Below, in pieces: positions 23,788 to 60,717 of a stretch of 64,000 nucleotides of DNA. Every line of letters begins with the position of its first letter. The first letter of the stretch is position 1. The notes beneath the pieces are model-generated. The model saw only the letters and a list, made by a program, of their open reading frames with translations, searched no databases and was not told where the DNA came from. This DNA comes from Acidobacteriota bacterium (GTDB lineage: Bacteria > Acidobacteriota > Blastocatellia > Pyrinomonadales > Pyrinomonadaceae). Location of the stretch: positions 423,475 through 487,474 of the forward strand of contig JADKBM010000013.1 in NCBI GenBank assembly GCA_016715115.1, in the 5' to 3' direction. Made by a program: the position numbers and the translations under genes.

Positions 23788-24534
23788 ATGAACAAGCAGG
23801 CAATCGACGAGATTCTCGGACTTCTCGAGCGCGGAACGCTCGACCGCGAGACGGCGGCGCAGCGGATCAAGGACCTTTCGTTTGAAGACATCGGCTACGC
23901 GCGGGTCGACCACGCAAGGGCGAGCCGTCAGGGATTTCCGGAAGTCATTTTTGGTCAGGGAAAGACGACGGCACAGATCGTCGGCATATTTGAGAAACTC
24001 GCGGCGCGTTCGCCGAACGTGCTGATCACGCGGACGAATGCCGAAGTTTTCGGCGAGATTCGAAACGTCTTCACCGATGCCGAATGGCACGAAGAGGCGC
24101 GGATCATCCGCGTATTTCGTGACAAAACCGAACTCGGATCAGGCGAGATCGCGATCGTCACGGCCGGCACGAGCGACATTCCGGTCGCCGAAGAAGCCGC
24201 TCTGACGGCCGAGACGATGGGCAACCGCGTGCGGCGCGTCTGGGACGCGGGCGTCGCCGGGATTCACCGGATTCTGTCCGAAAGGGAAATGCTGCAAGGC
24301 GCGCGCGTCGTTGTGGTCGCCGCCGGAATGGAAGGCGCGCTGCCATCGGTTGTCGGCGGGCTCGTCCGCGTTCCGGTGATCGCCGTCCCGACATCGATCG
24401 GTTACGGCGCCAGTTTCGGCGGCATCGCGGCGCTTCTCGGAATGCTTAATTCGTGCGCTTCGAACGTCACCGTCGTCAACATTGACAACGGCTTCGGCGC
24501 CGGGTTCGTGGCGAGTTTGATCAACCGGAAATAG
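23788..24534 (+). CDS. larB: Nickel-pincer cofactor biosynthesis protein LarB (PurE-like AIR carboxylase family)
   Basis: The ATG at 23788 gives [10 protein letters not shown]...[23 protein letters not shown]...[17 protein letters not shown]...[19 protein letters not shown]...[13 protein letters not shown]. Confidence 0.8.
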
Positions 24535-24536
24535 AG

Positions 24537-24665
24537 CAGCAGAGTGCAGAGTGCAGAGTGCAAAGTGCAGAGTGCAGAGAGCATAGTGCATAGTGCATAG
24601 TGCAGAGTGCAAGTGCTTACCCTTTGAACTCTGCACTATGCACTTTGCACTCTGCACTCTGCACT
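24537..24665. repeat. Heptamer palindrome (GCAGAGT / ACTCTGC) between convergent genes; likely bidirectional terminator hairpin
   Basis: About 11 GCAGAGT/GCATAGT/GCAAAGT units (24537-24616), the loop ttaccctttgaa, then 5 complementary units ctctgcactatgcactttgcactctgcactctgcact (24629-24665). Confidence 0.85.
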
Positions 24666-24670
24666 TGATT

Positions 24671-26104
24671 CTATTGATTCATAAGCGCGTATAAACGGTC
24701 CGCCCAATCGGACTTCGCGGCTCGAAGAAGTTCGTATTGAATGTACGCCGAATCGCGGTCACCGGCTTTGAGATACGCGCGGCCGAGGTTGTAGCGGGCT
24801 TTTTCGAAGTCGGGATTGAATCCGATCGCGCTGTTGAAGGCGTCGATGCTTTCAGCGGTCTTGCCCGACTCAAGGTAACATTCGCCAAGGTAGTTATAGG
24901 TTTTGGCGTCGGACTTGTAGGTCTTCAATTGTTCGAAGGCGCCGACCGCTTCGACGAATCGCTTCTGTTTTAAAAAGGCCAATCCGAGTTGCTCGTACGC
25001 CGCAGCGTGGTCGGGTTTGATCGCGACGGCGCGCCGGTAAGCGAGGATCTCCTCCTCGGGACGATTCAATTTTCCGAGGGTCAAACCATACGCGAATTGT
25101 GCGTCGGCGTTGTCCGCGTCGAGCCGTGTGGCCATACGGTAAGCGTCGGAAGCATCTTTGAATTCTTTCAGCGCGTAGCTCGAAGCGCCGATATTGACGT
25201 AAACCTCCGCCCATTCAGGCCGCAGTTTCGCGGCCTGTCGCGAGGCGCGCAGCGATTCGGCGTGACGACCGATCATTCCGTAGCAGAAACCGATCTGGTA
25301 CCAGGCCTCGGCGTAGTTCGGATCGGTTTCCGCAGCTTTTTCAAAAAGCGTTACGGCGCGCCCGTAATCGTCCCGCGACAGCTGCGCAAGTCCCTGTGAA
25401 TAAAGCCGTTCCGCGGAAGCGCGTTTCGATTTCTGAGTCTCGCTGTTAAGCGTCGCGAAGGTCTGGAGTTCACCGATCCTGAGTGCCGCGATGCGTTCGC
25501 TCGGGACGGCGAAGTTCAGGCTCTGGCCTTCGGCGGCCTGGAGCGTGGCGACGCCGATGACTTGTCCGAGCATATTGACCACCGGACTTCCCGACGATCC
25601 GGGCGAGATCGGCGCCGTGATCTGGATTATTCTCCCATAACCCGAAATTTCCCGGACGGCCGAGACGATGCCGTTTGAAACCGAACCTTCGAGTCCGAAC
25701 GGATTCCCGATAACGACGACCGACTCGCCCTCGAGCGGAACTTTTTGAACTATCGGAAGCGGGACCGCAAACTCTTTCGGCACTTCGACTTGAAGCAACG
25801 CAAGATCGCCTTCGCCGTCGACCGCAAGAACGCCCTTGACCGGATACTTGCGGCCGTTGAAGAGATGTATCTCGGCGCGCGCCGATTTTTCGATAACGTG
25901 TTTGTTGGTGATGACCTTGTCGCTCGCGACGAAGAAGCCCGAACCGCGCGAAACGATGTTGCCGCGGGTGTCGAACGTCTCGATCGCGACCGCTGAAGGT
26001 TTGATCCGTTTGACAAGCTCCGGAAGATAATCCTGCGCGAAAAGAGTCGTCGCCGAAAACAGCAACAACAAAGTGCACAGTGCTCTTAACAAACCGATTC
26101 TCAT
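24671..26104 (-). CDS. Trypsin-like (S1C) serine protease fused to C-terminal TPR repeats, secreted
   Basis: The catalytic triad context is present: VITNKHVI, GDLALLQV, ISPGSSGSPVVN. About 6 TPR repeats follow. The ATG at 26104 comes right after a TTG. Confidence 0.8.
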   Translation of the reverse strand: MRIGLLRALCTLLLLFSATTLFAQDYLPELVKRIKPSAVAIETFDTRGNIVSRGSGFFVASDKVITNKHVIEKSARAEIHLFNGRKYPVKGVLAVDGEGDLALLQVEVPKEFAVPLPIVQKVPLEGESVVVIGNPFGLEGSVSNGIVSAVREISGYGRIIQITAPISPGSSGSPVVNMLGQVIGVATLQAAEGQSLNFAVPSERIAALRIGELQTFATLNSETQKSKRASAERLYSQGLAQLSRDDYGRAVTLFEKAAETDPNYAEAWYQIGFCYGMIGRHAESLRASRQAAKLRPEWAEVYVNIGASSYALKEFKDASDAYRMATRLDADNADAQFAYGLTLGKLNRPEEEILAYRRAVAIKPDHAAAYEQLGLAFLKQKRFVEAVGAFEQLKTYKSDAKTYNYLGECYLESGKTAESIDAFNSAIGFNPDFEKARYNLGRAYLKAGDRDSAYIQYELLRAAKSDWADRLYALMNQ

Positions 26105-27894: not shown

Positions 27895-28452
27895 GGATTT
27901 CTGATTTCGGATTTTGGATTGTCAGAAACCGACGCGTTCAATTGTATGCCCCGGCTTCACAATCAACAAGTATTTCGGCAAGCCAAGGTCCAAAATCCAG
28001 ATTTCAGATTCCAGATTCCAGATTCCAGAGATTCCAGAGATTCCAGATTCCAGATTTCAGATTCCAGAGATTCCAGATTCCAGATTCCAGAGATTCCAGA
28101 TTCCAGATTCCAGATTCCAGAAATTCCAGATTCCAGATTTCAGATTCCAGATTCCAGAAATTCCAGATTCCAGAGATTCCAGATTCCAGATTCCAGAGAT
28201 TCCAGAAATTCCAGATTTCAGATTCCAGATTTCAGATTCCAGAAATTCCAGATTCCAGAGATTCCAGAAATTCCAGATTCCAGATTCCAGAGATTCCAGA
28301 AATTCCAGATTCCAGATTCCAGAGATTCCAGATTCCAGAGATTCCAGATTCCAAGAATTCAACATCTTCCAGATTCAATGGAATTTGGAATTTGGAATTT
28401 GGAATCTGGAATATCTGAAATCCCAAATCCCAAATCCCAAATCCCAAATCCA
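27895..28452. repeat. Largest array: 46 tandem 7/9-nt units (AGATTCC / AGAGATTCC / AGAAATTCC) with nested inverted arms
   Basis: My parse of 28001-28355 gives 29 heptamers, 16 nonamers and 1 terminal 8-mer. Inverted short arm GGAATTT/GGAATCT at 28378-28413. (CCCAAAT)n at 28414-28451 pairs with GGATTTCTGATTTCGGATTTTGGATT at 27895-27920. Confidence 0.95.
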
Positions 28453-28453
28453 G

Positions 28454-29737
28454 CTAGTCTCGCCTTCCGTTCCCGTCGAGCGCCGTGTAGACATCGTCGG
28501 TGTAAAGTCCGAGCCATTTGTCGGCGTCGGGAGTTTTGAACAGATCGGAGTAGATCGTCGAATTGAAGTTCTCGAGCAGGAACTTGCCTCTAAAATTGTT
28601 GAGCCGGCGAATCAACTCGGTATGAAGAAGAAAGTCGTTGCGCGTCGTATCGAGCGCGACGATCGTTTTCAGTTTCGAGATCATATTCTCGAATTGCCGT
28701 GCTTCAAGTTCGCGGTTCTGGCGTTTAATGAACGCCAGGCTCGAAGCGTCGAGATCGATCGTGCCGGCATATTCGGCTGCGAGTTTTTGCCAGTCGCCGG
28801 ACGGGATCTGCGGTTCGAATCGGGCGAAATTATCGTCGAGATCACGAAGAATCGTCGCCTCGGTCGCCATTTTAGTTACCGCGATCGGCCCGATGTCGAT
28901 CGCTCTAGCAGTTTTCGGCTCTTCGGCTTCTTTGAGGACGACCTTGGTCCTGGCGATCGCGTCTTCGCGTCGCGAACGGATCGAATAGAACTGGTTTCGC
29001 CGATAGCCATTCAACGCCGGTCCGCGCCTTTCGGCCGGAGTGTTCAAGAGTTGCGCCGAGAAATCGTGTCCTCTCGTCAGATAACCGAGAAATGCGCCCG
29101 GATCATAGAGTCCAGGAAGCGCGTCGATAACTTCAGCGTCGGGCGAGAGAATGTAATGGATGCTGTTGCCGGTCAATGTCCGTTCGAGCTTGCGGCCGTC
29201 GCCGAAATCGATCGTCACTTTCGGGGCCGGACGAACCGATTTCCAGTGGAGAACGTAGTTTTCGCGAAGATAGCGTGAAATCGAAGAATTCGAATAAAGC
29301 AACGCGCGAAAGAATCTCGAATTCGCGCAGCTGAATTCCTCGTTGAGATTTCCCAGAAGTCTGAGCGACAGGATCGGCTTGTTCGTGCGTTTTGCCTCAG
29401 CGACCGCCTCGTTCAGGTCGGTATGCCAGAAAAGCCTCGACGCGTAAACATCCTTCTGCATCGCGACCGAATCGAGTGCGGACGTGATCAGCGGCCAGTC
29501 GCCATCGGGCTTGCTAGACTTCGTGAAGGTTGCGATCTCGGCGGAATAAGCATCGAAAAGGGCGTTCAAACCTTCAACTCCCATCGATCGCAATTCGCGG
29601 ATCGCCACGGCACGTTCGTTTTCGTTTTCGGAGACCGCGCCGCGGACAAGTTCGGCCCGCGTTTTTGAGAACGCCGAGACGGCCAAAACCTGAACGAGCG
29701 CGAAAACCAGCAAAAATCTGAGACCTTTATTCTTCAT
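28454..29737 (-). CDS. Secreted hypothetical protein with thioredoxin-fold-like segment lacking CxxC
   Basis: The ATG at 29737 (GAGGAG upstream) gives MKNKGLRFLLVFALVQVLAVSAFS. The segment WHTDLNEAVAEAKRTNKPILSLRLLGNL resembles DUF255/thioredoxin-like proteins. No firm family call. Confidence 0.6.
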   Translation of the reverse strand: MKNKGLRFLLVFALVQVLAVSAFSKTRAELVRGAVSENENERAVAIRELRSMGVEGLNALFDAYSAEIATFTKSSKPDGDWPLITSALDSVAMQKDVYASRLFWHTDLNEAVAEAKRTNKPILSLRLLGNLNEEFSCANSRFFRALLYSNSSISRYLRENYVLHWKSVRPAPKVTIDFGDGRKLERTLTGNSIHYILSPDAEVIDALPGLYDPGAFLGYLTRGHDFSAQLLNTPAERRGPALNGYRRNQFYSIRSRREDAIARTKVVLKEAEEPKTARAIDIGPIAVTKMATEATILRDLDDNFARFEPQIPSGDWQKLAAEYAGTIDLDASSLAFIKRQNRELEARQFENMISKLKTIVALDTTRNDFLLHTELIRRLNNFRGKFLLENFNSTIYSDLFKTPDADKWLGLYTDDVYTALDGNGRRD

Positions 29738-48442: not shown

Positions 48443-49444
48443 TCAGGTTCCCGTCGAACCGTCGACGCTGTGCTTCGAATCGTCGGAAATATCGATCTCG
48501 GTCCAGTTTAGGCGCTTGACGAACTTTCGTTTGCGGACGTCGCAATCGGTTTTCGTGCAGATCTCGCAGGACGATTCAACGCAGGGGTCGGTGTGAACAA
48601 ACATCTCGATGCTCTCGCCGAATTTGGTGTCAATCAGCCGTTCGAGATCGTCGACGTCTTCGTGCGCATCTCGTGTGGTCAGATACCACGGCACCGTCAG
48701 ATGGCAGTCGATGTGCAGCGTGTTGCCGTATTTGATGATGCGGAGATTATGGAGGTCGATCCAATTGTCGCGGCGCGATTCTTCGAGGGTCGCGACGACC
48801 CTTTTCAGAAGTTCTTCGTCGGCCTCGTCCATAATCCCCGCGATCGAACCGCGGAGAATCTTGTAACCGGTGTAGATGATCACGCCGCCGAAGATCAGCG
48901 CGACCACGCTGTCAAGCCAGGCGAGTTTCGTAAACAGGATCAGGATGAGTCCGATGATGATGCCGATCGTTGAGTATGTGTCGGACTGCAAATGCTTTCC
49001 GCTCGCGACGAGGGCCAGTGAATTGTTCTTTTTGCCTTTTCTGACGGCAATGGCACCGACACCGTAATTGACGAAGGCCGTAATCGTGACGAGGATGATT
49101 CCGTAATCGAGCGAACCGATCTCGTGCGGGTGCCAGAGGTTATTGATGGCTTCATAAATGATCACGAGACCGGCGACGGCGATCAGTGTTCCCTCGATCG
49201 CCGCCGAGACGAATTCGACCTTGCCGTGACCGTAGGGGTGATTCGCGTCGCGCGGCTGGGCCGAAAGATAAAGACTGTAAAGCCCGACGAAGCCGGCGGT
49301 GACGTTGATCGTGCTCTCAAGCGCGTCGGTCAGGATCGCTACCGAATTCGTCAGATACCACGCGATGAATTTGATAACGAACAGCGCAACCCCGACCGCG
49401 GCGACGATCTTTTGAAAATTGTAGTTTTCTCGTGAGACTTCCAA
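48443..49444 (-). CDS. Cation diffusion facilitator (CDF) family metal efflux transporter with Cys-rich C-terminal tail
   Basis: The core matches CDF: IKFIAWYLTNSVAILTDALESTINV...HPYGHGKVEF...LQSDTYST. The start is uncertain (TTG at 49444 proposed). The ORF-track start at 49741 runs through the heptamer array. Confidence 0.7.
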   Translation of the reverse strand: MEVSRENYNFQKIVAAVGVALFVIKFIAWYLTNSVAILTDALESTINVTAGFVGLYSLYLSAQPRDANHPYGHGKVEFVSAAIEGTLIAVAGLVIIYEAINNLWHPHEIGSLDYGIILVTITAFVNYGVGAIAVRKGKKNNSLALVASGKHLQSDTYSTIGIIIGLILILFTKLAWLDSVVALIFGGVIIYTGYKILRGSIAGIMDEADEELLKRVVATLEESRRDNWIDLHNLRIIKYGNTLHIDCHLTVPWYLTTRDAHEDVDDLERLIDTKFGESIEMFVHTDPCVESSCEICTKTDCDVRKRKFVKRLNWTEIDISDDSKHSVDGSTGT

Positions 49445-49475
49445 GCTAATTTGATTGTAGATCGTTGAGCGCGAA

Positions 49476-49686
49476 TTGTTAATTTCGGATTCAAGATTCA
49501 AGAAAGATTTCAGATTCCGGATTCCAGGTATCCGGATTCCAGCGTTTAGGATTCCAGATTCCAGGATTCCAGGATTCCAGGATTCCAGGATTCCAGATTC
49601 CAGATTCAAGATTTCAGATTCCAAGAATTCAAGATTCCAAGAATTCAAGAATGATTCAAGATTCCAGGATTCCAGGATTCCAAGAG
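49476..49686. repeat. Heptamer array (GGATTCC / AGATTCC / AGATTCA family)
   Basis: Runs such as ggattccaggattccaggattccaggattccagattccagattcaagatttcagattcc. It lies upstream of the CDF gene start. Confidence 0.9.
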
Positions 49687-49965
49687 CCTGTCGGAAAAAT
49701 CGATTCAGTGTGCGGAGCAAACGCACATACGATAGCACCACGCGAAGCGGAGCGGAACGTGGTGTCAGCCGCGATCACCTCCAGCGAGCGTGTGAAACAC
49801 GCGGAACTGTTGCAAAAACGAGAGTTACGCGTGTTACACACGCTTAGGACGTCGGTTAGACAAGCCACCACGTTCCGCTCCGCTTCACGTGGTGTTATCG
49901 CAAGTTCGCGTGCTTCGCACGCTTGAAGAAGTAATGCCCGTTCCCAAACGGCTTTCTCCGACAGG
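49687..49965. repeat. About 279-nt nested palindromic element (possible structured RNA or MITE-like element)
   Basis: The outer arms are cctgtcgga (49687-49695) and tccgacagg (49957-49965). The 34-nt arms are gatagcaccacgcgaagcggagcggaacgtggtg (49731-49764) and caccacgttccgctccgcttcacgtggtgttatc (49866-49899), with 2 mismatches. At least four GCGTG-type mini-hairpins are present: tgtgcggagcaaacgcaca, gcgtgtgaaacacgc, gcgtgttacacacgc and gcgtgcttcgcacgc. Confidence 0.8.
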
Positions 49966-50085
49966 TTCCCAAGATCCAGATTCAAGATCCAAGATTCCAA
50001 GGATTCCAAATCCAGATTCCAAATTCCAGATTCCAGATCCGAATTCAAGATTCCAGAATTTCAAGGGTTCCAGATTGGGATCCCG
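49966..50085. repeat. Degenerate heptamer array (AGATTCC / AGATCCA family)
   Basis: ttcccaagatccagattcaagatccaagattccaaggattccaaatccagattccaaattccagattccagatccgaattcaagattccag. Confidence 0.85.
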
Positions 50086-50104
50086 AATCGCGTTGCAATC
50101 GCGT

Positions 50105-50213
50105 CGAGTCGGTACCATCTGCGGTAGCGGATGGTTGGTTGCGGCACTCGCGGACCGCAGTATTGATACCAACCTATCTTCAACCATCCGCTACCGCAGA
50201 TGGTACCGACTCG
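50105..50213. repeat. Perfect 33-bp inverted repeat with 43-nt spacer
   Basis: cgagtcggtaccatctgcggtagcggatggttg (50105-50137) and caaccatccgctaccgcagatggtaccgactcg (50181-50213). The spacer holds a small hairpin, tgcgg...ccgca. Confidence 0.9.
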
Positions 50214-50249
50214 TCCCGACCCCGCATACAAAGAACCCGTGGGTTTTTC

Positions 50250-50392
50250 AAAGCTCCAGATTCAAGATTCCAGATTGAAGGATCTCGAGTCCGGGCGTTT
50301 TAGATTTCTTGAATCGTGGAATCTGGAATCTTGGAATCGAAAATCCCAAATCCCAAATCCCAAATCCCAAATCCCAAATCCCAAATCCCAAA
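50250..50392. repeat. Heptamer arrays ending in (CCCAAAT)x7, abutting the xdhC stop
   Basis: ccagattcaagattccagattgaag...ggaatctggaatcttggaatcg, then 7 CCC tracts at 50345-50389. The final aaatca supplies the TGA of xdhC (50393-50395). Confidence 0.9.
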
Positions 50393-51421
50393 TCAGCGGT
50401 TCTTGACCGCGATGATCTCGGCCGCGATCGATATGGCGATCTCTTCAGGCGTTCGGCTGTTGATCGGAAGCCCGATCGGCGTCCGGATCCGTTTTAGCCG
50501 TTCGCCTTCGAAACCCTCCTTTTTCAATGAGTTCAGCAGAACCTTCATCTTGGCCTTGCTTCCCAAAACCCCGAAGTATTTGAAGTTCTTGTCAACAAGG
50601 CGACGGATGACGATCTCGTCGAAGCGGTATCCGAGCGTCATTGCGACGACGTAATGGTCCTCGCCGGAGTCGATCATCTGGTCGATCGACTCGTATGAGT
50701 CAATGATCGTTTTGCGATCCGCGAAGACGTTCTTCTCGACCGTGTTGAGTTCGTTTCGGTCATCGAACAACTCGATGTGAAAATCGAGTTTCGCCATCAA
50801 CTCCGAAAGTGCAAGCGCGCAATGCCCGCCGCCGACGATGAAAAGTCTCGGCTTTCGACCGATCGTTTCTTCATAAACGAACTTCGAAGCTCCGCCCTTA
50901 GAAGTTCCGCCGTATGGAGTTCCGCCTTCAGGCGGCCCTTCCTCCGCCACCCAGAACCCGATTTCCGACGAACCGAAGTCATCGGAGATCGCCAGCCCGC
51001 GTTCAGTGATCTTGAACCGGATCACCCGCGATTCGCCGAGCGCGTCGCAAATCGCACGTACCGTCGGCAGATCACCCGCGTCGAGCGCGCAGACGATCAC
51101 CGTCTGGCTTCCCGAGCAGATCATCCCGCTCGCGTCCGGAACATTCGGCCGGTGAACAAGCGTTTGGATTTTGGATTTTGGATTTTGGACTTCGGATTCG
51201 TCGGTGCGATCGTTGCGCGCTTGATCGACGAGCGCAACCTCCATCACACCGCCGCCGATCGAGCCAATCATTTCGTCATCGGCGACAACCATTTTGAATC
51301 CCGCGCGGCCGGGCGAACTGCCTGAACTCTCGGCGACGACGATCAAGATCGCGCGTTCGCCCGAATCCAGACGTTCGCGGGCAAAGTTCCAGAGTTCCGA
51401 TTCAAACCTCATTCGATGCAT
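50393..51421 (-). CDS. xdhC: XdhC/CoxI family molybdenum-cofactor insertion accessory protein
   Basis: ATG at 51421 (or 51412). The N-domain reads AILIVVAESSGSSPGRAGFKMVV and the C-terminal Rossmann reads RLFIVGGGHCALALSELM. It carries in-frame repeat insertions (QNPKSKIQ; PPEGGTPYGGTSKGGASK). Confidence 0.8.
   Translation of the reverse strand: MHRMRFESELWNFARERLDSGERAILIVVAESSGSSPGRAGFKMVVADDEMIGSIGGGVMEVALVDQARNDRTDESEVQNPKSKIQTLVHRPNVPDASGMICSGSQTVIVCALDAGDLPTVRAICDALGESRVIRFKITERGLAISDDFGSSEIGFWVAEEGPPEGGTPYGGTSKGGASKFVYEETIGRKPRLFIVGGGHCALALSELMAKLDFHIELFDDRNELNTVEKNVFADRKTIIDSYESIDQMIDSGEDHYVVAMTLGYRFDEIVIRRLVDKNFKYFGVLGSKAKMKVLLNSLKKEGFEGERLKRIRTPIGLPINSRTPEEIAISIAAEIIAVKNR
50882..50937. 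repeat. Intragenic (xdhC) 15-nt x3 tandem repeat overlapping the 22-nt hairpin element
   Basis: The sense strand reads GGCGGAACTCCATAC GGCGGAACTTCTAAG GGCGGAGCTTCGAAG (GGTPY GGTSK GGASK). GGAGTTCCGCCTTCAGGCGGCC at 50916-50937 is identical to 52359-52380. Confidence 0.8.
51167..51208. repeat. In-frame intragenic heptamer array in xdhC
   Basis: ggatttt ggatttt ggatttt ggacttc ggattcg (tcggtgc), translated on the minus strand as ESEVQNPKSKIQ. Confidence 0.8.
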
Positions 51422-51531
51422 TTTACTTCGTTTTCTGTCTGATCGCGACGGGTACTCGGACGTTGCCCGAACTGCGGGCCAACGCCGGAGCGCGGGTTGA
51501 AGAAGGCCAGATTGTGCGTTAAGGAAGTGTC

Positions 51532-51708
51532 TTTCCCGCGAAATACGCCAAAGGCGCGAAAAATGGCATTCTTTCACCTTGTTCTTCGGAAAATTCGCGG
51601 GAAGTTCCTTCAACCCAGATTACTCATTAAACTCAATTTCCCGCGAAATACCCAAAAACAACATCAAAAATGGCATTTTTGCGGTTTTGGCGTGTTTCGC
51701 CGGAAAGA
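51532..51708. repeat. Two tandem copies of a TTTCCCGCGAAATAC hairpin element between xdhB and xdhC
   Basis: Copy 1 is tttcccgcgaaatacgccaaaggcgcgaaaaatggcattc...ggaaaattcgcgggaag. Copy 2 is tttcccgcgaaatacccaaaaacaacatcaaaaatggcattt...gcgtgtttcgccggaaag. Confidence 0.7.
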
Positions 51709-51763: not shown

Positions 51764-53980
51764 TTACGATCCGTACAGATTCATCAGGATCTTTTCCGGA
51801 GTCAACGGCGCGTCGAATGGCGGCAAACTCTCTTGATTGAATGCTTTGACGGCTTCGCGGAGGGCGAAATAGGCGCCGATGCCGTACATCAGGGGCGGTT
51901 CGCCGACGGCCTTTGAATTGAAAACCGCGAGATTTTCCTTGAGATTATCCAGCGAGACCACCTCGATCGTTTTCGGAGCCGAGTAAACATCGGGAATCTT
52001 GTAGGTTGAGAGCGCGTTCGAACGCAAACGGCCGATTTCATCGTAAACGACCTCTTCCATCGTCATCCAGCCGATTCCCTGAACGATGCCGCCCTCGATC
52101 TGACCGAGGTCGACCGCCGGGTTCATCGATTGACCGAAGTCGTGGCAAACCTTGACGTAATCGAATTCGTAGGTTCCGCGAAGGCAATCGACCGTAACGC
52201 CGACGATCGCCGTTCCATAAACGTGATATGCGAACGGATGGCCTTTGGCAACCGACCAGTCGAAACCGATTCCCGGCGTCGCGTAATGTGCGTGCTCGCT
52301 GAGATTGACGCGTCGCAAATGCGCCTCGTTCACAAGTTCGACCCAGCTCGGAGCGCTTGGAGTTCCGCCTTCAGGCGGCCTTCCAACCATCGATGCCTCA
52401 ACTTCCTTTAGCCTTTCAAGAATCGTCCCGCAGGCGATCGCCGTCGCCTTGCCGTTCAGATCGGCCGCCGCCGAAGCCGCCGTCGGCGACGTGTTGGCGA
52501 TCCGCAAAGTATTGGTCGTGTGGACCTTGATAAATCCGATCGGGATGCCGAAGACGTTCGCCGCGACCTGTGCGATCTTGGTGTTCACGCCCTGTCCCAT
52601 TTCGACCGCGCCGGTCGAAACCGCGACCGTTCCGTCGGTGTAAACGTGGACCAGCGAACGCGCCTGGTTCATCGGCGTTTTAGTGAACGAGATCCCGAAA
52701 CAGACGGGCTGGATGGCGACGCCTTTTTTCAGATACTTGCTCGATGCATTGAATTCAAACGCATCGCGTTTGAGACGTTCGAATTCGTATTTCGCGTCGG
52801 CCTGCATCCAGCTTGTTTCGGCCTCGGATTCAGCGATCTGGCCGTACGGGAATTCGTCGCCGGTCTTTAGGAGATTGCGGCGTTGGACCTCGTCTTTCGC
52901 GACGCCGAGCTTCTCGGCAGCGTGCGCGATCGCCGATTCGATGACGAACATTCCCTGCGGTCCGCCGAATCCCCGAAAAGCCGTGTTCGGCGGCAGGTTC
53001 GTCTTGCAAGAATAGGCGACGGCCGAAACGTTCGGGATAAAATACGAGTTCGAGCAGTGGAAAAGCGTGCGTTCGAGAACCGGAAGCGAGAGGTCGCACG
53101 CCGCGCCTGCGTTTTGGAAGAAGGTCACGTCATACGCGACGATCTTCAGATCGGCATCGAGCCCGATTCTGTAATCGGCCGAGTACGGATGCCGTTTTCC
53201 GGTCATCCGCATATCATCCATCCTGTGCAGCGCGAATTTCACCGGACGCCTTGTGATCTGTGTGCCGACGGCGCAAATGGCCGCCCAAGCGTTTGCCTGA
53301 TCTTCCTTGCCCCCGAAGCCGCCGCCGAGTCTCGTCACGTCGACCTCGATCAGATTCATCGGCAGCGCCGTAACCCTCGCAACCGCGCGCTGGACCGCCG
53401 TCGGACCCTGTGTCGACGAATAAACGCGGATTCCGTCGCTCTCGGCCGGAATCGTAAAGGCGCCCTGAGTTTCGATGTACAGATGCTCCTGGCCGCCCGA
53501 ATGGGTGCGGCCTTCGAAAACGTGCGCGCAGCTCTTGAGTGCCGATTCGGCGTCGCCGAGTTTGAATCGTTTCGGCGGCGCGATCAGGCTGTTTCTTGCA
53601 AATGCCTCGCGTTCATCGGTGATCGCTTCGAGCGGTTCGATCTCGACCGAGATCAGTTTCGCCGCGGCACGCGCCTGCTCGTCCGTTTCGGCGAGCACGA
53701 TGGCGATCGGCATTCCGCAGAAATGAACTTCGTCTTCCGCAAGCAGGGGTTCGTCCGGCAAGATGCCGCCGATCTGATTCTCGCCGACAAGATCCTTTGC
53801 GGTGATAACCCGTGCGACGCCTTTTGCAGTTTCCGCTTTGCTCGTGTTGAGGGCCGTGATTCGACCGTGGGCAACCGGCGAGTCGAAAACGCACGCGAAA
53901 AGCGTCCCTTCGACGACCGGAATATCGTCGAGATAAACCGATTCGCCGCGTACATATGATTTTGAGTCAAGGTTTTTCAT
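51764..53980 (-). CDS. xdhB: Xanthine dehydrogenase / aldehyde oxidase molybdopterin-binding subunit
   Basis: 738 aa. GESVYLDDIP..., GGGFGGKE and conserved Mo-hydroxylase blocks. It carries an in-frame 22-nt element (RPPEGGTPS). Confidence 0.9.
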   Translation of the reverse strand: MKNLDSKSYVRGESVYLDDIPVVEGTLFACVFDSPVAHGRITALNTSKAETAKGVARVITAKDLVGENQIGGILPDEPLLAEDEVHFCGMPIAIVLAETDEQARAAAKLISVEIEPLEAITDEREAFARNSLIAPPKRFKLGDAESALKSCAHVFEGRTHSGGQEHLYIETQGAFTIPAESDGIRVYSSTQGPTAVQRAVARVTALPMNLIEVDVTRLGGGFGGKEDQANAWAAICAVGTQITRRPVKFALHRMDDMRMTGKRHPYSADYRIGLDADLKIVAYDVTFFQNAGAACDLSLPVLERTLFHCSNSYFIPNVSAVAYSCKTNLPPNTAFRGFGGPQGMFVIESAIAHAAEKLGVAKDEVQRRNLLKTGDEFPYGQIAESEAETSWMQADAKYEFERLKRDAFEFNASSKYLKKGVAIQPVCFGISFTKTPMNQARSLVHVYTDGTVAVSTGAVEMGQGVNTKIAQVAANVFGIPIGFIKVHTTNTLRIANTSPTAASAAADLNGKATAIACGTILERLKEVEASMVGRPPEGGTPSAPSWVELVNEAHLRRVNLSEHAHYATPGIGFDWSVAKGHPFAYHVYGTAIVGVTVDCLRGTYEFDYVKVCHDFGQSMNPAVDLGQIEGGIVQGIGWMTMEEVVYDEIGRLRSNALSTYKIPDVYSAPKTIEVVSLDNLKENLAVFNSKAVGEPPLMYGIGAYFALREAVKAFNQESLPPFDAPLTPEKILMNLYGS
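52359..52380. repeat. 22-nt hairpin element inside xdhB, identical to the copy in xdhC
   Basis: GGAGTTCCGCCTTCAGGCGGCC (stem CCGCC/GGCGG, loop TTCA) is translated in frame as PPEGGTP. Confidence 0.85.
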
Positions 53981-53992
53981 TACGAATTAGAT

Positions 53993-54470
53993 GGTAGACG
54001 GTAGACGGTAGACGGTAGAGGGTAGACGGTAGACGGTAGAGGGTAGACGGTAGACGGTAGACGGTAGAGGGTAGACGGTAGACGGTAGAGGGTAGACGGT
54101 AGAGGGTAGACGGTAGACGGTAGACGGTAGACGGTAGACCGCCAACCTCTCACTGCTCACCTCTCACCTCTCACCTCTCACTGCTCACCTCTCACTGCTC
54201 ACCTCTCACTGCTCACCTCTCACTGCTCACCTCTCACTGCTCACCTCTCACCGCTCACCTCTCATTGCTCACCTCTCACTCACTGCTCACCTCTCACCTC
54301 TCACCTCTCACCGACCACTGACCACCGACCACTGACCACCGACCACTGCTCACTGCTCACCGCTCACCGCTCACCGCTCACTGCTCACCGCTCACTGCTC
54401 ACCGCTCACCGCTCACTGCTCACCGCTCACCGCTCACCGCTCACCGCTCACCGCTCACCGCTCACTGCCA
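53993..54470. repeat. Composite heptamer arrays filling the xdhA-xdhB spacer
   Basis: 21 units of GGTAGAC/GGTAGAG (53993-54139). Then CTCTCAC/TGCTCAC units (about 54147-54310), CGACCACTGACCAC units (about 54311-54347) and GCTCACC/GCTCACT units (to about 54470) that include the xdhA stop and last codons. Confidence 0.95.
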
Positions 54471-55899
54471 CGAAGTGCGCCCGGAAAAGCTGGCGCGCCA
54501 ACAGACGTTTGTATTCGGCCGAACCGCGAACGTCGGAGATCGGCGCGATCTCCGTTTGCAGGATCGCCTCCGCTTCTTCGAGGATCGCATCGTTGATCGG
54601 TTTTCCGCTCAGGAACGCCGAGGTCTTTCTTAACAACAAAGGCGTCGGCGCGACCCCGCCGATCGAGACGCGCGCCGTTTCGACAACATCGCCCGAAAGC
54701 CTGAGCGCGATCGCCGTATTAACAGAAGCGATGTCAAGATAGGTTCGTTTCGAGACCTTTTCAAAATTGAAATGCGTGAAATCCTTGCGAATTGAGATCT
54801 TCGAAATGATCTCCGACTCAACCTTTGCGAGCTGCTTGTAACCCAAATACAAATCAGATAACGCAATGTTCCGAATTCCGAAATCCGAATTCCCAATTCC
54901 GAAATCGCGTAGTTCCAATTCGGCGTCGAGCGCCAGAAAAAAGACCGTCATATCGCCGATCGGCGAGGCATTTACAAAATTGCCGGCGAGCGTCGCCATA
55001 TTCCTGATCGGCGTCGACGAAACCAATTTCAAATACTTGTCAAGGTTCGGAAAAAGCCGATGGAAGACTTCAGACTCGAGCAAGTCGGTGACGACGACAG
55101 ACGGGCCGATCTCGACCGTTTCGTCGGTCTCGCGGATGAACCGAAGCGCAGGATCGTCAAACAAACTCGTCGCACCCGCGTGGACCATTTCGTCGTGCTT
55201 CTGAACGTAAAGGTCCGTGCCGCCGGCGACGAATCTTGGGGTGGTGATTTCGGATGATACGGATTTCAGACCTTCGGAGTCGGGATGTTCGCGCACCAAC
55301 AATTCGAGACGCCGCCCGATGGATTCGAAATATTTCGGAACCGCACCGGCGGCGATCGCCTTCTCGATTTGCGACTGTGACTTGTTGAGCATCGCATTGC
55401 CGAAATCCGAAATCCCAAATCCCAAATCCGAAATCCTCTCGCACGCCCGCTCGATCGACTTGTAACCCGTGCAGCGGCAAATGTTTCCGTCGATCGCCGC
55501 AACCACCGATTCTTTGGTTTTCTGACCGTCGCCGAGGCAAAAACCGGTCAGAGACATCACGAATCCAACCGTGCAGAATCCGCATTGAGTTCCGGATTCG
55601 TCGACCAACGCTGCCTGCGCGGGTGTCAGGCTTCCGTCGGCCGGGTTGATTCCTTCGACAGTCACGATATGCTTGCCGCGCGCATTCAAGAGCGGCATCA
55701 GGCACGATGTCATCGAACGATATCTGAGGTCTCCGTCCTTGAGTTCACCGACGAGGATCGTGCACGCCCCGCAATCCCCTTCGCGGCAGCCGATCTTCGT
55801 TCCCTTCAGATTCTTGTGATACCGAACAAAGTCGAGCACCGTCGTTCCGCCTGGGAGATCGGTTTCGACGGATTGATTGTTGAGAATAAATTCGATCAT
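54448..55899 (-). CDS. xdhA: Xanthine dehydrogenase small subunit (2x [2Fe-2S] + FAD-binding domains)
   Basis: The ATG at 55899 gives MIEFILNNQSV. Contains CREGDCGACT, CGFCTVGFVMS and CRCTGYKSI, then FAD_binding_5-like VAGGTDLYV. There are two in-frame heptamer insertions, and the last codons are repeat-encoded. Confidence 0.85.
   Translation of the reverse strand: MIEFILNNQSVETDLPGGTTVLDFVRYHKNLKGTKIGCREGDCGACTILVGELKDGDLRYRSMTSCLMPLLNARGKHIVTVEGINPADGSLTPAQAALVDESGTQCGFCTVGFVMSLTGFCLGDGQKTKESVVAAIDGNICRCTGYKSIERACERISDLGFGISDFGNAMLNKSQSQIEKAIAAGAVPKYFESIGRRLELLVREHPDSEGLKSVSSEITTPRFVAGGTDLYVQKHDEMVHAGATSLFDDPALRFIRETDETVEIGPSVVVTDLLESEVFHRLFPNLDKYLKLVSSTPIRNMATLAGNFVNASPIGDMTVFFLALDAELELRDFGIGNSDFGIRNIALSDLYLGYKQLAKVESEIISKISIRKDFTHFNFEKVSKRTYLDIASVNTAIALRLSGDVVETARVSIGGVAPTPLLLRKTSAFLSGKPINDAILEEAEAILQTEIAPISDVRGSAEYKRLLARQLFRAHFVAVSGER
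54871..54909. repeat. In-frame intragenic heptamer-type array in xdhA (FAD domain)
   Basis: ccgaattccgaaatccgaattcccaattccgaaatcgcg, translated on the minus strand as RDFGIGNSDFGIR. Confidence 0.75.
55401..55436. repeat. In-frame intragenic heptamer array in xdhA (linker after the 2Fe-2S domains)
   Basis: cgaaatc cgaaatc ccaaatc ccaaatc cgaaatc c, translated on the minus strand as SDLGFGISDFG. Confidence 0.8.
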
Positions 55900-59935: not shown

Positions 59936-60129
59936 TTTTGGATTTGCGATTTGCGATTTTGGATTCCAGATATTCCAGATATTCCAGATTCCAACATCGA
60001 AAATTCCAAATTCCAAATTCCAAATTCCAAATTCCAAATTCCAAAATCCAAAATCCAAAATCGCAAATCGCAAATCGCAAATCGCAAATCGCAAATCGCA
60101 AATCGCAAATCGCAAATTCCAAAATCGAA
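59936..60129. repeat. Composite heptamer array between the VOC gene stop and the glycosylase start
   Basis: gattttg gatttgc gatttgc gattttg, then gattcca/gatattcca units, then aaattcc x6, aaaatcc x2-3, aaatcgc x8, and finally aaaatcgaa-ATG. The 5' arm is the reverse complement of the 3' AAATCGC block. Confidence 0.95.
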
Positions 60130-60717
60130 ATGCTTGCCCGTCAATTCTATCTTCGTACCGACACGCTCGCGATCGCCAGGGATCTGATCGGTAAACTGCT
60201 CATCGTTCAGGATCCCGAACACGGACGCGTGTCCGGGATGATCGTCGAAACCGAGGCGTATCTCGGTGAGATCGACAGGGCGGCGCATTCCTACGGCGGG
60301 CGGCGAACGGCGCGAAACGAGATCACCTACGCGGCCGGCGGTCATACTTACGTCTTTTTCGTTTACGGAATGTACTTTCAGCTCAACATCGTCTGCGGTC
60401 CCGAAGACTCGCCGCATGTTTGTCTGATCCGCGCCGTCGAACCCGTCGAAAACATCGAACTGATGCGCGAACGGCGAAAGACCGTGCAGGATCTGAATTT
60501 GACTTCGGGACCCGGAAAATTATGCGTCGCCCTCGGTATCAACAAAAGCTTTAACGGCGCGGATCTGCTCGGAAATCGAATTTGGCTGGAAGATTTTCGT
60601 ACAGTCGGCGGGGAAGAGGTCGGAAGCGGGAAACGCGTCGGCATCGATTACGCCGGGGAATTCGCCGCCAAACCCTGGCGCTTCTGGTTGAAAGGGAACA
60701 AGTTCGTGTCGCGTTGA
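60130..60717 (+). CDS. DNA-3-methyladenine glycosylase (Mpg/AAG family)
   Basis: The ATG at 60130 gives MLARQFYLRTDTLAIARDLIGKLL...IVETEAYLG..DRAAHSYGGRRT.RNE.....GGH.YVYF.YGM. The ORF-track start at 59932 is pure repeat sequence. Confidence 0.85.
   Translation: MLARQFYLRTDTLAIARDLIGKLLIVQDPEHGRVSGMIVETEAYLGEIDRAAHSYGGRRTARNEITYAAGGHTYVFFVYGMYFQLNIVCGPEDSPHVCLIRAVEPVENIELMRERRKTVQDLNLTSGPGKLCVALGINKSFNGADLLGNRIWLEDFRTVGGEEVGSGKRVGIDYAGEFAAKPWRFWLKGNKFVSR

Follow-up and report, generated by a model that had tools for sequence, protein, structure and literature searches.

We examined the spacer between the xdhA- and xdhB-like genes in a 64-kb window (64,000 nt from contig JADKBM010000013.1 of the Acidobacteriota assembly GCA_016715115.1; all positions without a genome label refer to it), where an xdhABC gene set lies on the minus strand (Table 1). 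The spacer occupies 467 nt (53981-54447), between the xdhB start at 53980 and the xdhA stop codon at 54448-54450, and it consists almost entirely of tandem 7-nt repeats, or heptamers, that also encode the end of XdhA. Comparisons across the lineage were made with a set of 161 sequences (1.55 Mb in total), comprising the window and relatives labelled L001-L160.

The domain content and order of the three genes fit the xdhABC operon type. The xdhA product contains the Pfam domains Fer2, Fer2_2, FAD_binding_5 and CO_deh_flav_C, and its best solved-structure match is XdhA of Rhodobacter capsulatus (2w3r_A), while the xdhB product contains Ald_Xan_dh_C, MoCoBD_1 and MoCoBD_2. The best NCBIfam models were TIGR02963 (xanthine_xdhA, 353 bits) for the former and TIGR02965 (xanthine_xdhB, 785.5 bits) for the latter, both scores being under the respective equivalog cut-offs (467 and 849.5). 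The names xdhA and xdhB, as used in a preliminary description of the locus, hold as family assignments on this evidence, and xanthine is a plausible substrate of the predicted XdhAB. The start of xdhA was placed at ATG 55899 (MIEFILNNQ, as in L001) instead of the upstream GTG 55929, because of the alignment with L001 and of tblastn matches that start at residue 11 of the longer open reading frame (ORF).

Table 1. Features of the xdhABC locus and its heptamer-repeat spacer (positions in the window; FAD, flavin adenine dinucleotide; TRF, Tandem Repeats Finder)
Feature	Position	Strand	Evidence
C-rich, G-poor array (mRNA strand): GTCTACC x16, CTCTACC x5	53993..54139	-	TRF, unit parse, folding
G-rich compound array (mRNA strand), ~46 units: GGTGAGC/AGTGAGC, GGTGGTC/AGTGGTC, GGTGAGA	54147..54466	-	TRF, unit parse, L001/L002 units
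Non-repeat 7-nt linker between the arrays, CGCCAAC on the plus strand	54140..54146	-	unit parse
12-nt non-repeat leader before the xdhB ATG, ATCTAATTCGTA on the sense strand; no obvious Shine-Dalgarno sequence	53981..53992	-	sequence
Repeat-encoded XdhA tail (A)VSGER and TGA stop, in place of the ELF motif and short tail	54448..54468	-	sequence, alignment
xdhA-like gene (2Fe-2S and FAD subunit), 483 aa from ATG 55899	54448..55899	-	Pfam, NCBIfam, structure match, alignment
xdhB-like gene (molybdopterin-binding subunit), 738 aa	51764..53980	-	Pfam, NCBIfam, start codon conserved in relatives
xdhC-like maturation factor, exact start uncertain	50393..51613	-	Pfam XdhC_CoxI, XdhC_C
In-frame heptamer run in xdhA, encoding DFGIGNSDFGIRN, in a hypervariable FAD-domain loop	54869..54921	-	TRF; insertion relative to many relatives
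In-frame heptamer run in xdhA (product DLGFGISDFGN), in the Fe-S/FAD interdomain linker	55398..55438	-	TRF, alignment

Repeat content of the spacer and the end of XdhA

TRF detected two arrays of period 7 in the spacer, one next to xdhB (53988-54139, 21.7 copies, 92% matches, score 262) and one next to xdhA (54145-54465, 46.3 copies, 82% matches, score 341), for a total of about 67 units. Parsed into units on the plus strand, the first contains 21 of them (53993-54139; 16 GGTAGAC and 5 GGTAGAG). The second starts at 54147 with 19 alternating CTCTCAC/TGCTCAC units and a 4-nt slip (TCAC), continues with one TGCTCAC and three CTCTCAC units and a block of five CGACCAC/TGACCAC units (54312-54346), and ends in a stretch of TGCTCAC/CGCTCAC units that reaches about 54466. 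Read on the sense (mRNA) strand, the G-rich compound array (GGTGAGC, AGTGAGC, GGTGGTC and GGTGAGA units) therefore comes first and the C-rich array (GTCTACC/CTCTACC) second. Both TRF and the unit parse confirmed the order of units given in the preliminary description, which had also stated that the spacer holds nothing besides heptamers. This is correct for the arrays, which are essentially pure, but "almost only" is more accurate, as the 7-nt linker and the 12-nt leader (53981-53992, also given as TACGAATTAGAT) are non-repeat; they are the sole such bases in the spacer. A stop map bore out the further claim that any reading frame entering the G-rich units is stopped within 21 nt, with a TGA at 21-nt intervals in all three sense frames across these arrays. 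Two of the three sense frames are free of stops in the C-rich array (53993-54139), and no ORF of at least 60 aa was found inside the spacer on either strand.

The last codons of xdhA (GCA GTG AGC GGT GAG CGG TGA) are themselves repeat units. We aligned the XdhA C-termini of the window and 53 relatives. All of the relatives other than L001 (52/52) carry AHF[VYFI]E[LMVI]F, mostly with ELF and rarely with EMF, EVF or EIF, followed by a variable tail of 2-10 residues. The window protein instead ends in AHFV-AVSGER and the L001 protein in AHFL-AVSSER, both encoded by the same type of unit. Because the ELF-type motif is kept in 52/52 other aligned relatives, the native XdhA end was replaced by the array, a possibility raised in the preliminary description, in a change common to the window and L001.

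The junction itself also differs from that of other relatives. The xdhA stop and the xdhB start overlap as ATGA (stop-to-ATG distance of -4) in 10 relatives, from both Pyrinomonadaceae and Bacteroidota, and the distance is -1 in 2 more. An ATGA stop/start overlap is the classical arrangement for translational coupling. These comparisons show the ancestral xdhA-xdhB junction to have been an overlapping ATGA stop/start behind an ...AHF.ELF C-terminus; the arrays therefore overwrote the last XdhA residues and destroyed this coupling too.

RGTGAGC units follow xdhA in the window, in L001 and in L002. The L002 contig begins inside (AGTGAGC)n and continues with 19 unique nt and then (GCAAATC)n, which abuts the xdhB ATG. 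The arm beside xdhB is different in each of the three genomes, with GTCTACC in the window, ACTGNCC in L001 and GCAAATC in L002. According to a scan with one genome per species, the nearest relatives of XdhB are from metagenome-assembled genomes (MAGs) of Pyrinomonadaceae (Acidobacteriota, Blastocatellia), with L001 the best at 85% amino acid identity and Bacteroidota proteins at about 65-70%; the L002 protein is 80% identical. An exact-protein look-up of XdhB returned no record, an exact 23-nt search for the xdhB start in metagenome contigs gave 0 matches, and a protein-based metagenome scan revealed no relative closer than L001 (best 77%).

The window and L001 have the same gene order around the xdh operon. 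The ratio of nonsynonymous to synonymous divergence (dN/dS) was 0.11-0.19 for xdhA and xdhB in the array-bearing clade, at a synonymous divergence (dS) of 0.8-1.0; for xdhB against L001 it was 0.11. Both genes have thus stayed under purifying selection with the arrays in place, and the operon has therefore remained functional with the spacer present.

Heptamer arrays across the window and the lineage

Arrays were found by TRF at many unrelated intergenic sites in the window, where 20 period-7 segments cover 1249 nt and none of the other periods between 4 and 12 covers more than 50 nt. Across the 161 sequences, period 7 accounted for 6167 nt, compared with 322 nt for period 8, 158 nt for period 4 and 135 nt for period 9. 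Closer relatives within the Pyrinomonadaceae have many arrays, and the Bacteroidota relatives have few. Period-7 arrays are thus lineage-wide in these Pyrinomonadaceae, the present genome being represented by one 64-kb window, and the spacer is one of about 20 in that window.

The arrays have consistent orientations. Adjacent arrays are inverted complements in 17/40 pairs, which is the commonest architecture. Using crude gene calls, and with many of the arrays lying in orthologous neighbourhoods so that the counts are not phylogenetically independent, we found that the G-rich arm comes first in 16/17 inverted pairs, on either strand (p = 2.7e-4, all 161 sequences), that the coding strand is C-rich in 24/28 arrays situated no more than 40 nt before an ORF start and G-rich in the other 4 (p = 2e-4), and that it is G-rich in 24/33 arrays located at a stop or beyond it (9 otherwise; p = 0.014). 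The xdhA-xdhB spacer obeys both rules (G-rich arm first and C-rich arm beside the downstream start), though its arms mismatch.

Some arrays are translated. Besides the two in-frame runs in xdhA (Table 1), xdhC has one at 51159-51198 that encodes a QNPKSKIQ-type peptide, and all three runs fall in loops that are hypervariable among relatives, some of which have different inserts there, also of 7-aa period. Whole inverted pairs, each with a G-rich arm, a loop of about 100 nt and a C-rich arm, are translated inside the XdhA interdomain linker of L019 (4517-4681), L028 (4279-4435) and L032 (4539-4713), with products such as VSGRWSAVSGQ ... RPLTTDHRP. This suggests that the paired-array unit may insert as a whole. 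Other peptides recur in the XdhA loops of relatives (SEPPAVAGGL, EPSAVADGLS, SPHVSKGD, PPYEGG, GTQAPSPA and HPLTQVVPT); they look like translated copies of other palindromic elements resembling repetitive extragenic palindromic (REP) sequences, such as the one at 50108-50210 of the window.

That palindrome belongs to about 950 nt of repeat-only, non-coding DNA located 3' of xdhC (49440-50397). The TGA stop of xdhC adjoins a (GATTTGG)n array (50334-50397), after which come several (GGAATCT)-type arrays, a perfect 27-nt inverted repeat (50108-50134 and 50184-50210, hairpin z = -10) and a second palindrome at about 49745-49930. Elsewhere in the window, two convergent genes are separated by (GCAGAGT)n and then the complementary (ACTCTGC)n (24537-24667), giving a near-perfect hairpin of about 60 bp; the region (24530-24672) folds at z = -10.9, and the pair may be a bidirectional terminator. 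Arrays at 27994-28454 (TCCAGAT, about 46 copies) and 59937-60131 (ATTCCAA, about 21 copies) artificially lengthen the ORFs called at 27914 and 59932, whose real starts are probably just after the arrays. An inverted pair, (TAGACGG)n...(GTCTACC)n, is also present in L001 (4016-4362), between a ydcZ-like gene and xdhA, and ends 11 nt before the xdhA ATG. It uses the unit of the window's xdhB-proximal array at a non-orthologous site, where the window has about 110 nt.

Other relatives have large xdhA-xdhB gaps, of 380-3400 nt. We considered these as candidate repeat arrays and rejected them, as they hold inserted ORFs of lower G+C content, some on the opposite strand. The inserted ORFs encode 120-450 aa and were seen in L003, L005, L006, L010, L014, L016, L019, L028, L046, L057, L061 and others. 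The junction is generally permissive, an insertion hotspot for genes and repeats alike.

Folding of the spacer and signals within it

One possible role for the spacer is as a functional intercistronic RNA, in which the G-rich arrays pair by G-U wobble with (GUCUACC)n into a long imperfect duplex. Such a duplex would shield the xdhA mRNA against exonucleases acting from the 3' end, adjust the initiation of xdhB or keep the C-rich, G-poor tract out of reach of Rho. We folded the sense RNA (521 nt) and compared it with 100 dinucleotide shuffles. The minimum free energy (MFE) structure (-196.2 kcal/mol) does pair GUCUACC units with G-rich units, in runs of six pairs plus one mismatch per unit. Joining the C-rich to the G-rich array gains about 93 kcal/mol, whereas the C-rich array on its own (158 nt, 53986-54143) folds at -12.4 kcal/mol and is intrinsically unstructured. 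The sense strand also folds better than the antisense strand (-151 kcal/mol, z = +0.59). The pairing pattern, the energy gain and the strand difference speak for a duplex, but the shuffles had nearly the same mean energy (-194.9 kcal/mol, z = -0.19) and 39/100 of them were as good. As a control that keeps the repetitiveness, we permuted the seven positions of the GUCUACC unit identically in every unit; 61% of these arrays folded as well as or better than the native one (mean -215.6 kcal/mol, standard deviation 40.7), and a perfect inverted partner array would fold at -436.5 kcal/mol. The centroid differs greatly from the MFE structure, the ensemble is register-slippery, and no inverted DNA repeat was found in the spacer at seed 7.

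The preliminary description had estimated that GGUGAGC and GUCUACC units pair at about 6 of 7 positions and considered a long duplex between the two arrays conceivable unless the fold proved no better than shuffled controls. Runs of six pairs are present in the MFE structure, but the unit consensuses of the two arms are complementary at 4/7 positions at best. Given z = -0.19 and the 61% of permutations that do as well, the duplex fails as a specific feature by that description's own standard. Nor is the spacer a hairpin or REP-like element, since its arms are not reverse complements and its fold is no better than the controls.

Relatives give a more favourable view of junction structure. In L001, inverted arrays make the orthologous spacer a true hairpin (z = -5.5 to -6.0), and nine other relatives (L031, L036, L038, L041, L044, L052, L058, L059 and L063) have strong hairpins at the junction (z = -4 to -16). 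The prevalence of inverted pairs among adjacent arrays and the strong fold of the pair at 24530-24672 also speak for a structural role. On the other hand, the xdhB-proximal arm is different in the three closest genomes, so no pairing is conserved. Taking both sides together, we regard a functional duplex, or another structural or regulatory part played on the mRNA, as unlikely, even though it fares best among the rival explanations, chiefly on account of the junction hairpins of relatives. The hairpins of the nine relatives, examined as possible heptamer arrays, were rejected as such, as they are built from period-8 units (CACAGAGA, CACGGAGA). They are about 40-110 nt long, with purine-rich and CT-rich arms; the 5' arm encodes the XdhA tail after ELF (e.g., ATENTETPE) and the 3' arm stops shortly before the xdhB ATG.

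The arrays might instead mark a boundary between independent transcription units, with xdhA ending and xdhB starting from signals in, or made of, the repeats. Genes inserted between xdhA and xdhB, some of them on the opposite strand (L003, L005, L006 and L014), imply that xdhB cannot always depend on the xdhA promoter, and G-rich heptamers have been reported to sit preferentially 3' of genes on the coding strand (PMC4692102). However, a scan for one promoter type (sigma-70-like) found none inside 53981-54447, and no intrinsic terminator (GC-rich stem-loop plus U tract) was found there either, the two matches of the scanned region lying within coding sequences. Only 12 non-repeat nt are available before the xdhB ATG. 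We give this explanation little weight. Searches against Rfam 15 had no match at the gathering threshold in the whole window and none with E <= 1 in 53900-54550.

Origin of the spacer and comparison with known heptamers

We favour the explanation that the spacer is a tolerated compound heptamer-repeat element, which expanded at a permissive junction and has no function specific to xanthine dehydrogenase (probability of about 0.6). The comparisons show that an RGTGAGC-type array entered right after the Val codon of AHFV in the common ancestor of the window genome, L001 and probably L002. Because the unit carries TGA in every frame, XdhA now ends six repeat-encoded residues later, with loss of the ELF motif. 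The arrays subsequently grew to about 67 units, and the arm beside xdhB turned over. The polarity (G-rich first, C-rich at the downstream start) was kept, and the two arms are no longer complementary. Slipped-strand mispairing or unequal recombination may both create arrays of this kind and alter their length. The spacer would be carried passively on the xdhABC transcript, with xdhB probably initiating independently, without translational coupling, at an AUG 12 nt past the G-poor and unstructured (GUCUACC)n. The element would then be tolerated rather than useful, and the new stop, the new six-residue tail and the loss of translational coupling are most likely accidental consequences of the array.

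Several observations sit less easily with passive expansion. The RGTGAGC unit after xdhA has been kept over a dS of about 0.8-1.0, a hint of constraint, though the unit now encodes the tail and the stop. A limited repertoire of units is common to different genomes at non-orthologous sites, such as GGTAGAC/GTCTACC at xdhA in L001 and at xdhB in the window. The strict period of 7 and the G-first polarity (16/17 inverted pairs) go beyond plain slippage; like the shared units, they could point to an active mechanism or to RNA-level selection. Lastly, the highly significant junction hairpins of relatives, including L001 (z = -4 to -16), leave room for a structural role.

A stronger departure would be that the arrays are made by an active, polar process, or belong to a class of mobile element peculiar to this lineage, instead of arising by passive slippage. 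Reiterative 3'-end extension at DNA breaks or hairpin tips might be responsible, or a dedicated enzyme or binding protein; alternatively, polarity might persist because exposed RNA that is C-rich and G-poor would load Rho and is selected against. The motive for this proposal, besides the strict period of 7 and the limited set of units recurring at non-orthologous sites, is that the G-rich strands of 16/17 inverted pairs run 5' to 3' towards the centre, the geometry of head-to-head telomere-like tracts, and that even coding sequence has received whole insertions consisting of a G-arm, a loop and a C-arm. We consider such a process improbable, about on a par with a transcription-unit boundary.

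We also considered a phase-variable contingency locus, where changes in unit number would switch the expression of xdhA or xdhB, and rejected it as very unlikely. The 7-nt unit is not a multiple of 3, and heptamer repeats are reported to drive HMW1A phase variation in Haemophilus influenzae (PMC8262952). However, XdhA terminates in the third unit no matter how long the array is, and xdhB starts beyond the arrays, so no reading frame depends on copy number, and no sigma-70-like promoter was found in the spacer. The genes belong to housekeeping purine catabolism, and genes of many classes have arrays here, a distribution also seen in Xanthomonas and Nostoc, for which phase variation was considered improbable (PMC4692102). 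Creation or inflation of the repeats by the assembler is barely credible, for although long low-complexity arrays are error-prone and short-read contigs of relatives break near the junction (L002, for example, starts inside an array), heptamer arrays are also present at this junction in the independent assemblies of L001 and L002, the arrays are internally structured by variant units, and the XdhA frame of the window, like that of L001, comes to a clean end within the array. The precise number of copies in the spacer could nevertheless be wrong.

Heptamer arrays of this type have precedents in other phyla, whereas a literature search on heptamer repeats in Acidobacteria, Pyrinomonadaceae or Blastocatellia found no relevant description. 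The closest class is the heptameric simple sequence repeats, including the three tandem heptanucleotides of Calothrix PCC 7601, known as short tandemly repeated repetitive (STRR) sequences. Judged by its features, the spacer can be placed in this STRR-like class, except that it does not contain G-quadruplex-type units (runs of three to four G), as GGTGAGC and GGTAGAC have GG runs only. REP sequences and bacterial interspersed mosaic elements (BIMEs) of enterobacteria are another class of genome-wide palindromes, which lie between the cistrons of operons and are able to form hairpins in mRNA. The junction hairpins of L001 and the nine other relatives resemble them. REP/BIME elements are, however, built on a single palindromic unit of about 35 nt, whereas here the arms are tandem heptamer arrays, and in the window these arms are not complementary.

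Heptamer arrays have been studied in Xanthomonas (GGGAATC) and in Nostoc (GGGGAYT, with a 26-unit array between pecE and pecF), and were noted earlier in Calothrix (PMC4692102). The cyanobacterial arrays (Calothrix PCC 7601 and Nostoc PCC 7120, GGGGA(C/T)T) are like those described here in having strict 7-nt units in long tandem, a genome-wide distribution with an intergenic bias, and occurrences within operons, as at pecE/pecF (PMC4692102). They differ in that the present arrays are from Acidobacteriota and use many units, mostly with GG runs only and hence with weak G-quadruplex potential, and in that a conserved protein C-terminus is overwritten and whole inverted pairs are translated inside proteins. 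The GGGAATC arrays of Xanthomonas campestris and X. axonopodis are likewise intergenic, sometimes form inverted pairs able to make stem-loops, and are mostly transcribed with no regulatory role found (PMC4692102); the window units GGGATTT and GGAATCT are similar to theirs. One unit dominates in Xanthomonas, with a modal four copies, whereas unit types here number in the dozens and arrays reach about 46 units. The strand preference seen here was also reported for the Xanthomonas and Nostoc heptamers, and there is extensive turnover of length and sequence between two related Xanthomonas species (PMC4692102). No function was found for these heptamers, and one suggested source is slippage of a polymerase, linked to how large its active-site footprint is (PMC4692102). 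TAACTGA repeats of marine Beggiatoaceae, some Cyanobacteria and Bacteroidetes also lie a few nt 5' of starts, within operons and sometimes in ORFs, and their unit, like the G-rich unit of the spacer, contains stop codons (PMC4679880). Binding of a translational regulator was proposed for the TAACTGA arrays just 5' of starts in Beggiatoaceae, without proof (PMC4679880). A single heptamer is involved in that case, mostly in 2-6 copies, and pairing of a G-rich with a C-rich arm has not been described for it.

The consequence of the spacer for the xdh operon is modest, in that a conserved XdhA C-terminal motif became six repeat-encoded residues and a coupled junction became a 467-nt untranslated gap. 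Since purifying selection persisted, the locus shows how much disruption the operon of a two-subunit enzyme tolerates. There are also practical effects, as the arrays break short-read assemblies, inflate ORF predictions (the spurious starts at 27914 and 59932) and add odd low-complexity inserts to annotated proteins. Any theory of heptamer origin would have to account for the rules seen here: a period of 7 only, the G-rich arm first in pairs, a C-rich coding strand beside starts, and in-frame translation within protein loops. The arrays in the sequences around these xdh operons are diverse and were found in many MAGs, and with them the Pyrinomonadaceae (Blastocatellia) become a further lineage replete with 7-nt arrays, after the cyanobacteria, the xanthomonads and the Beggiatoaceae.

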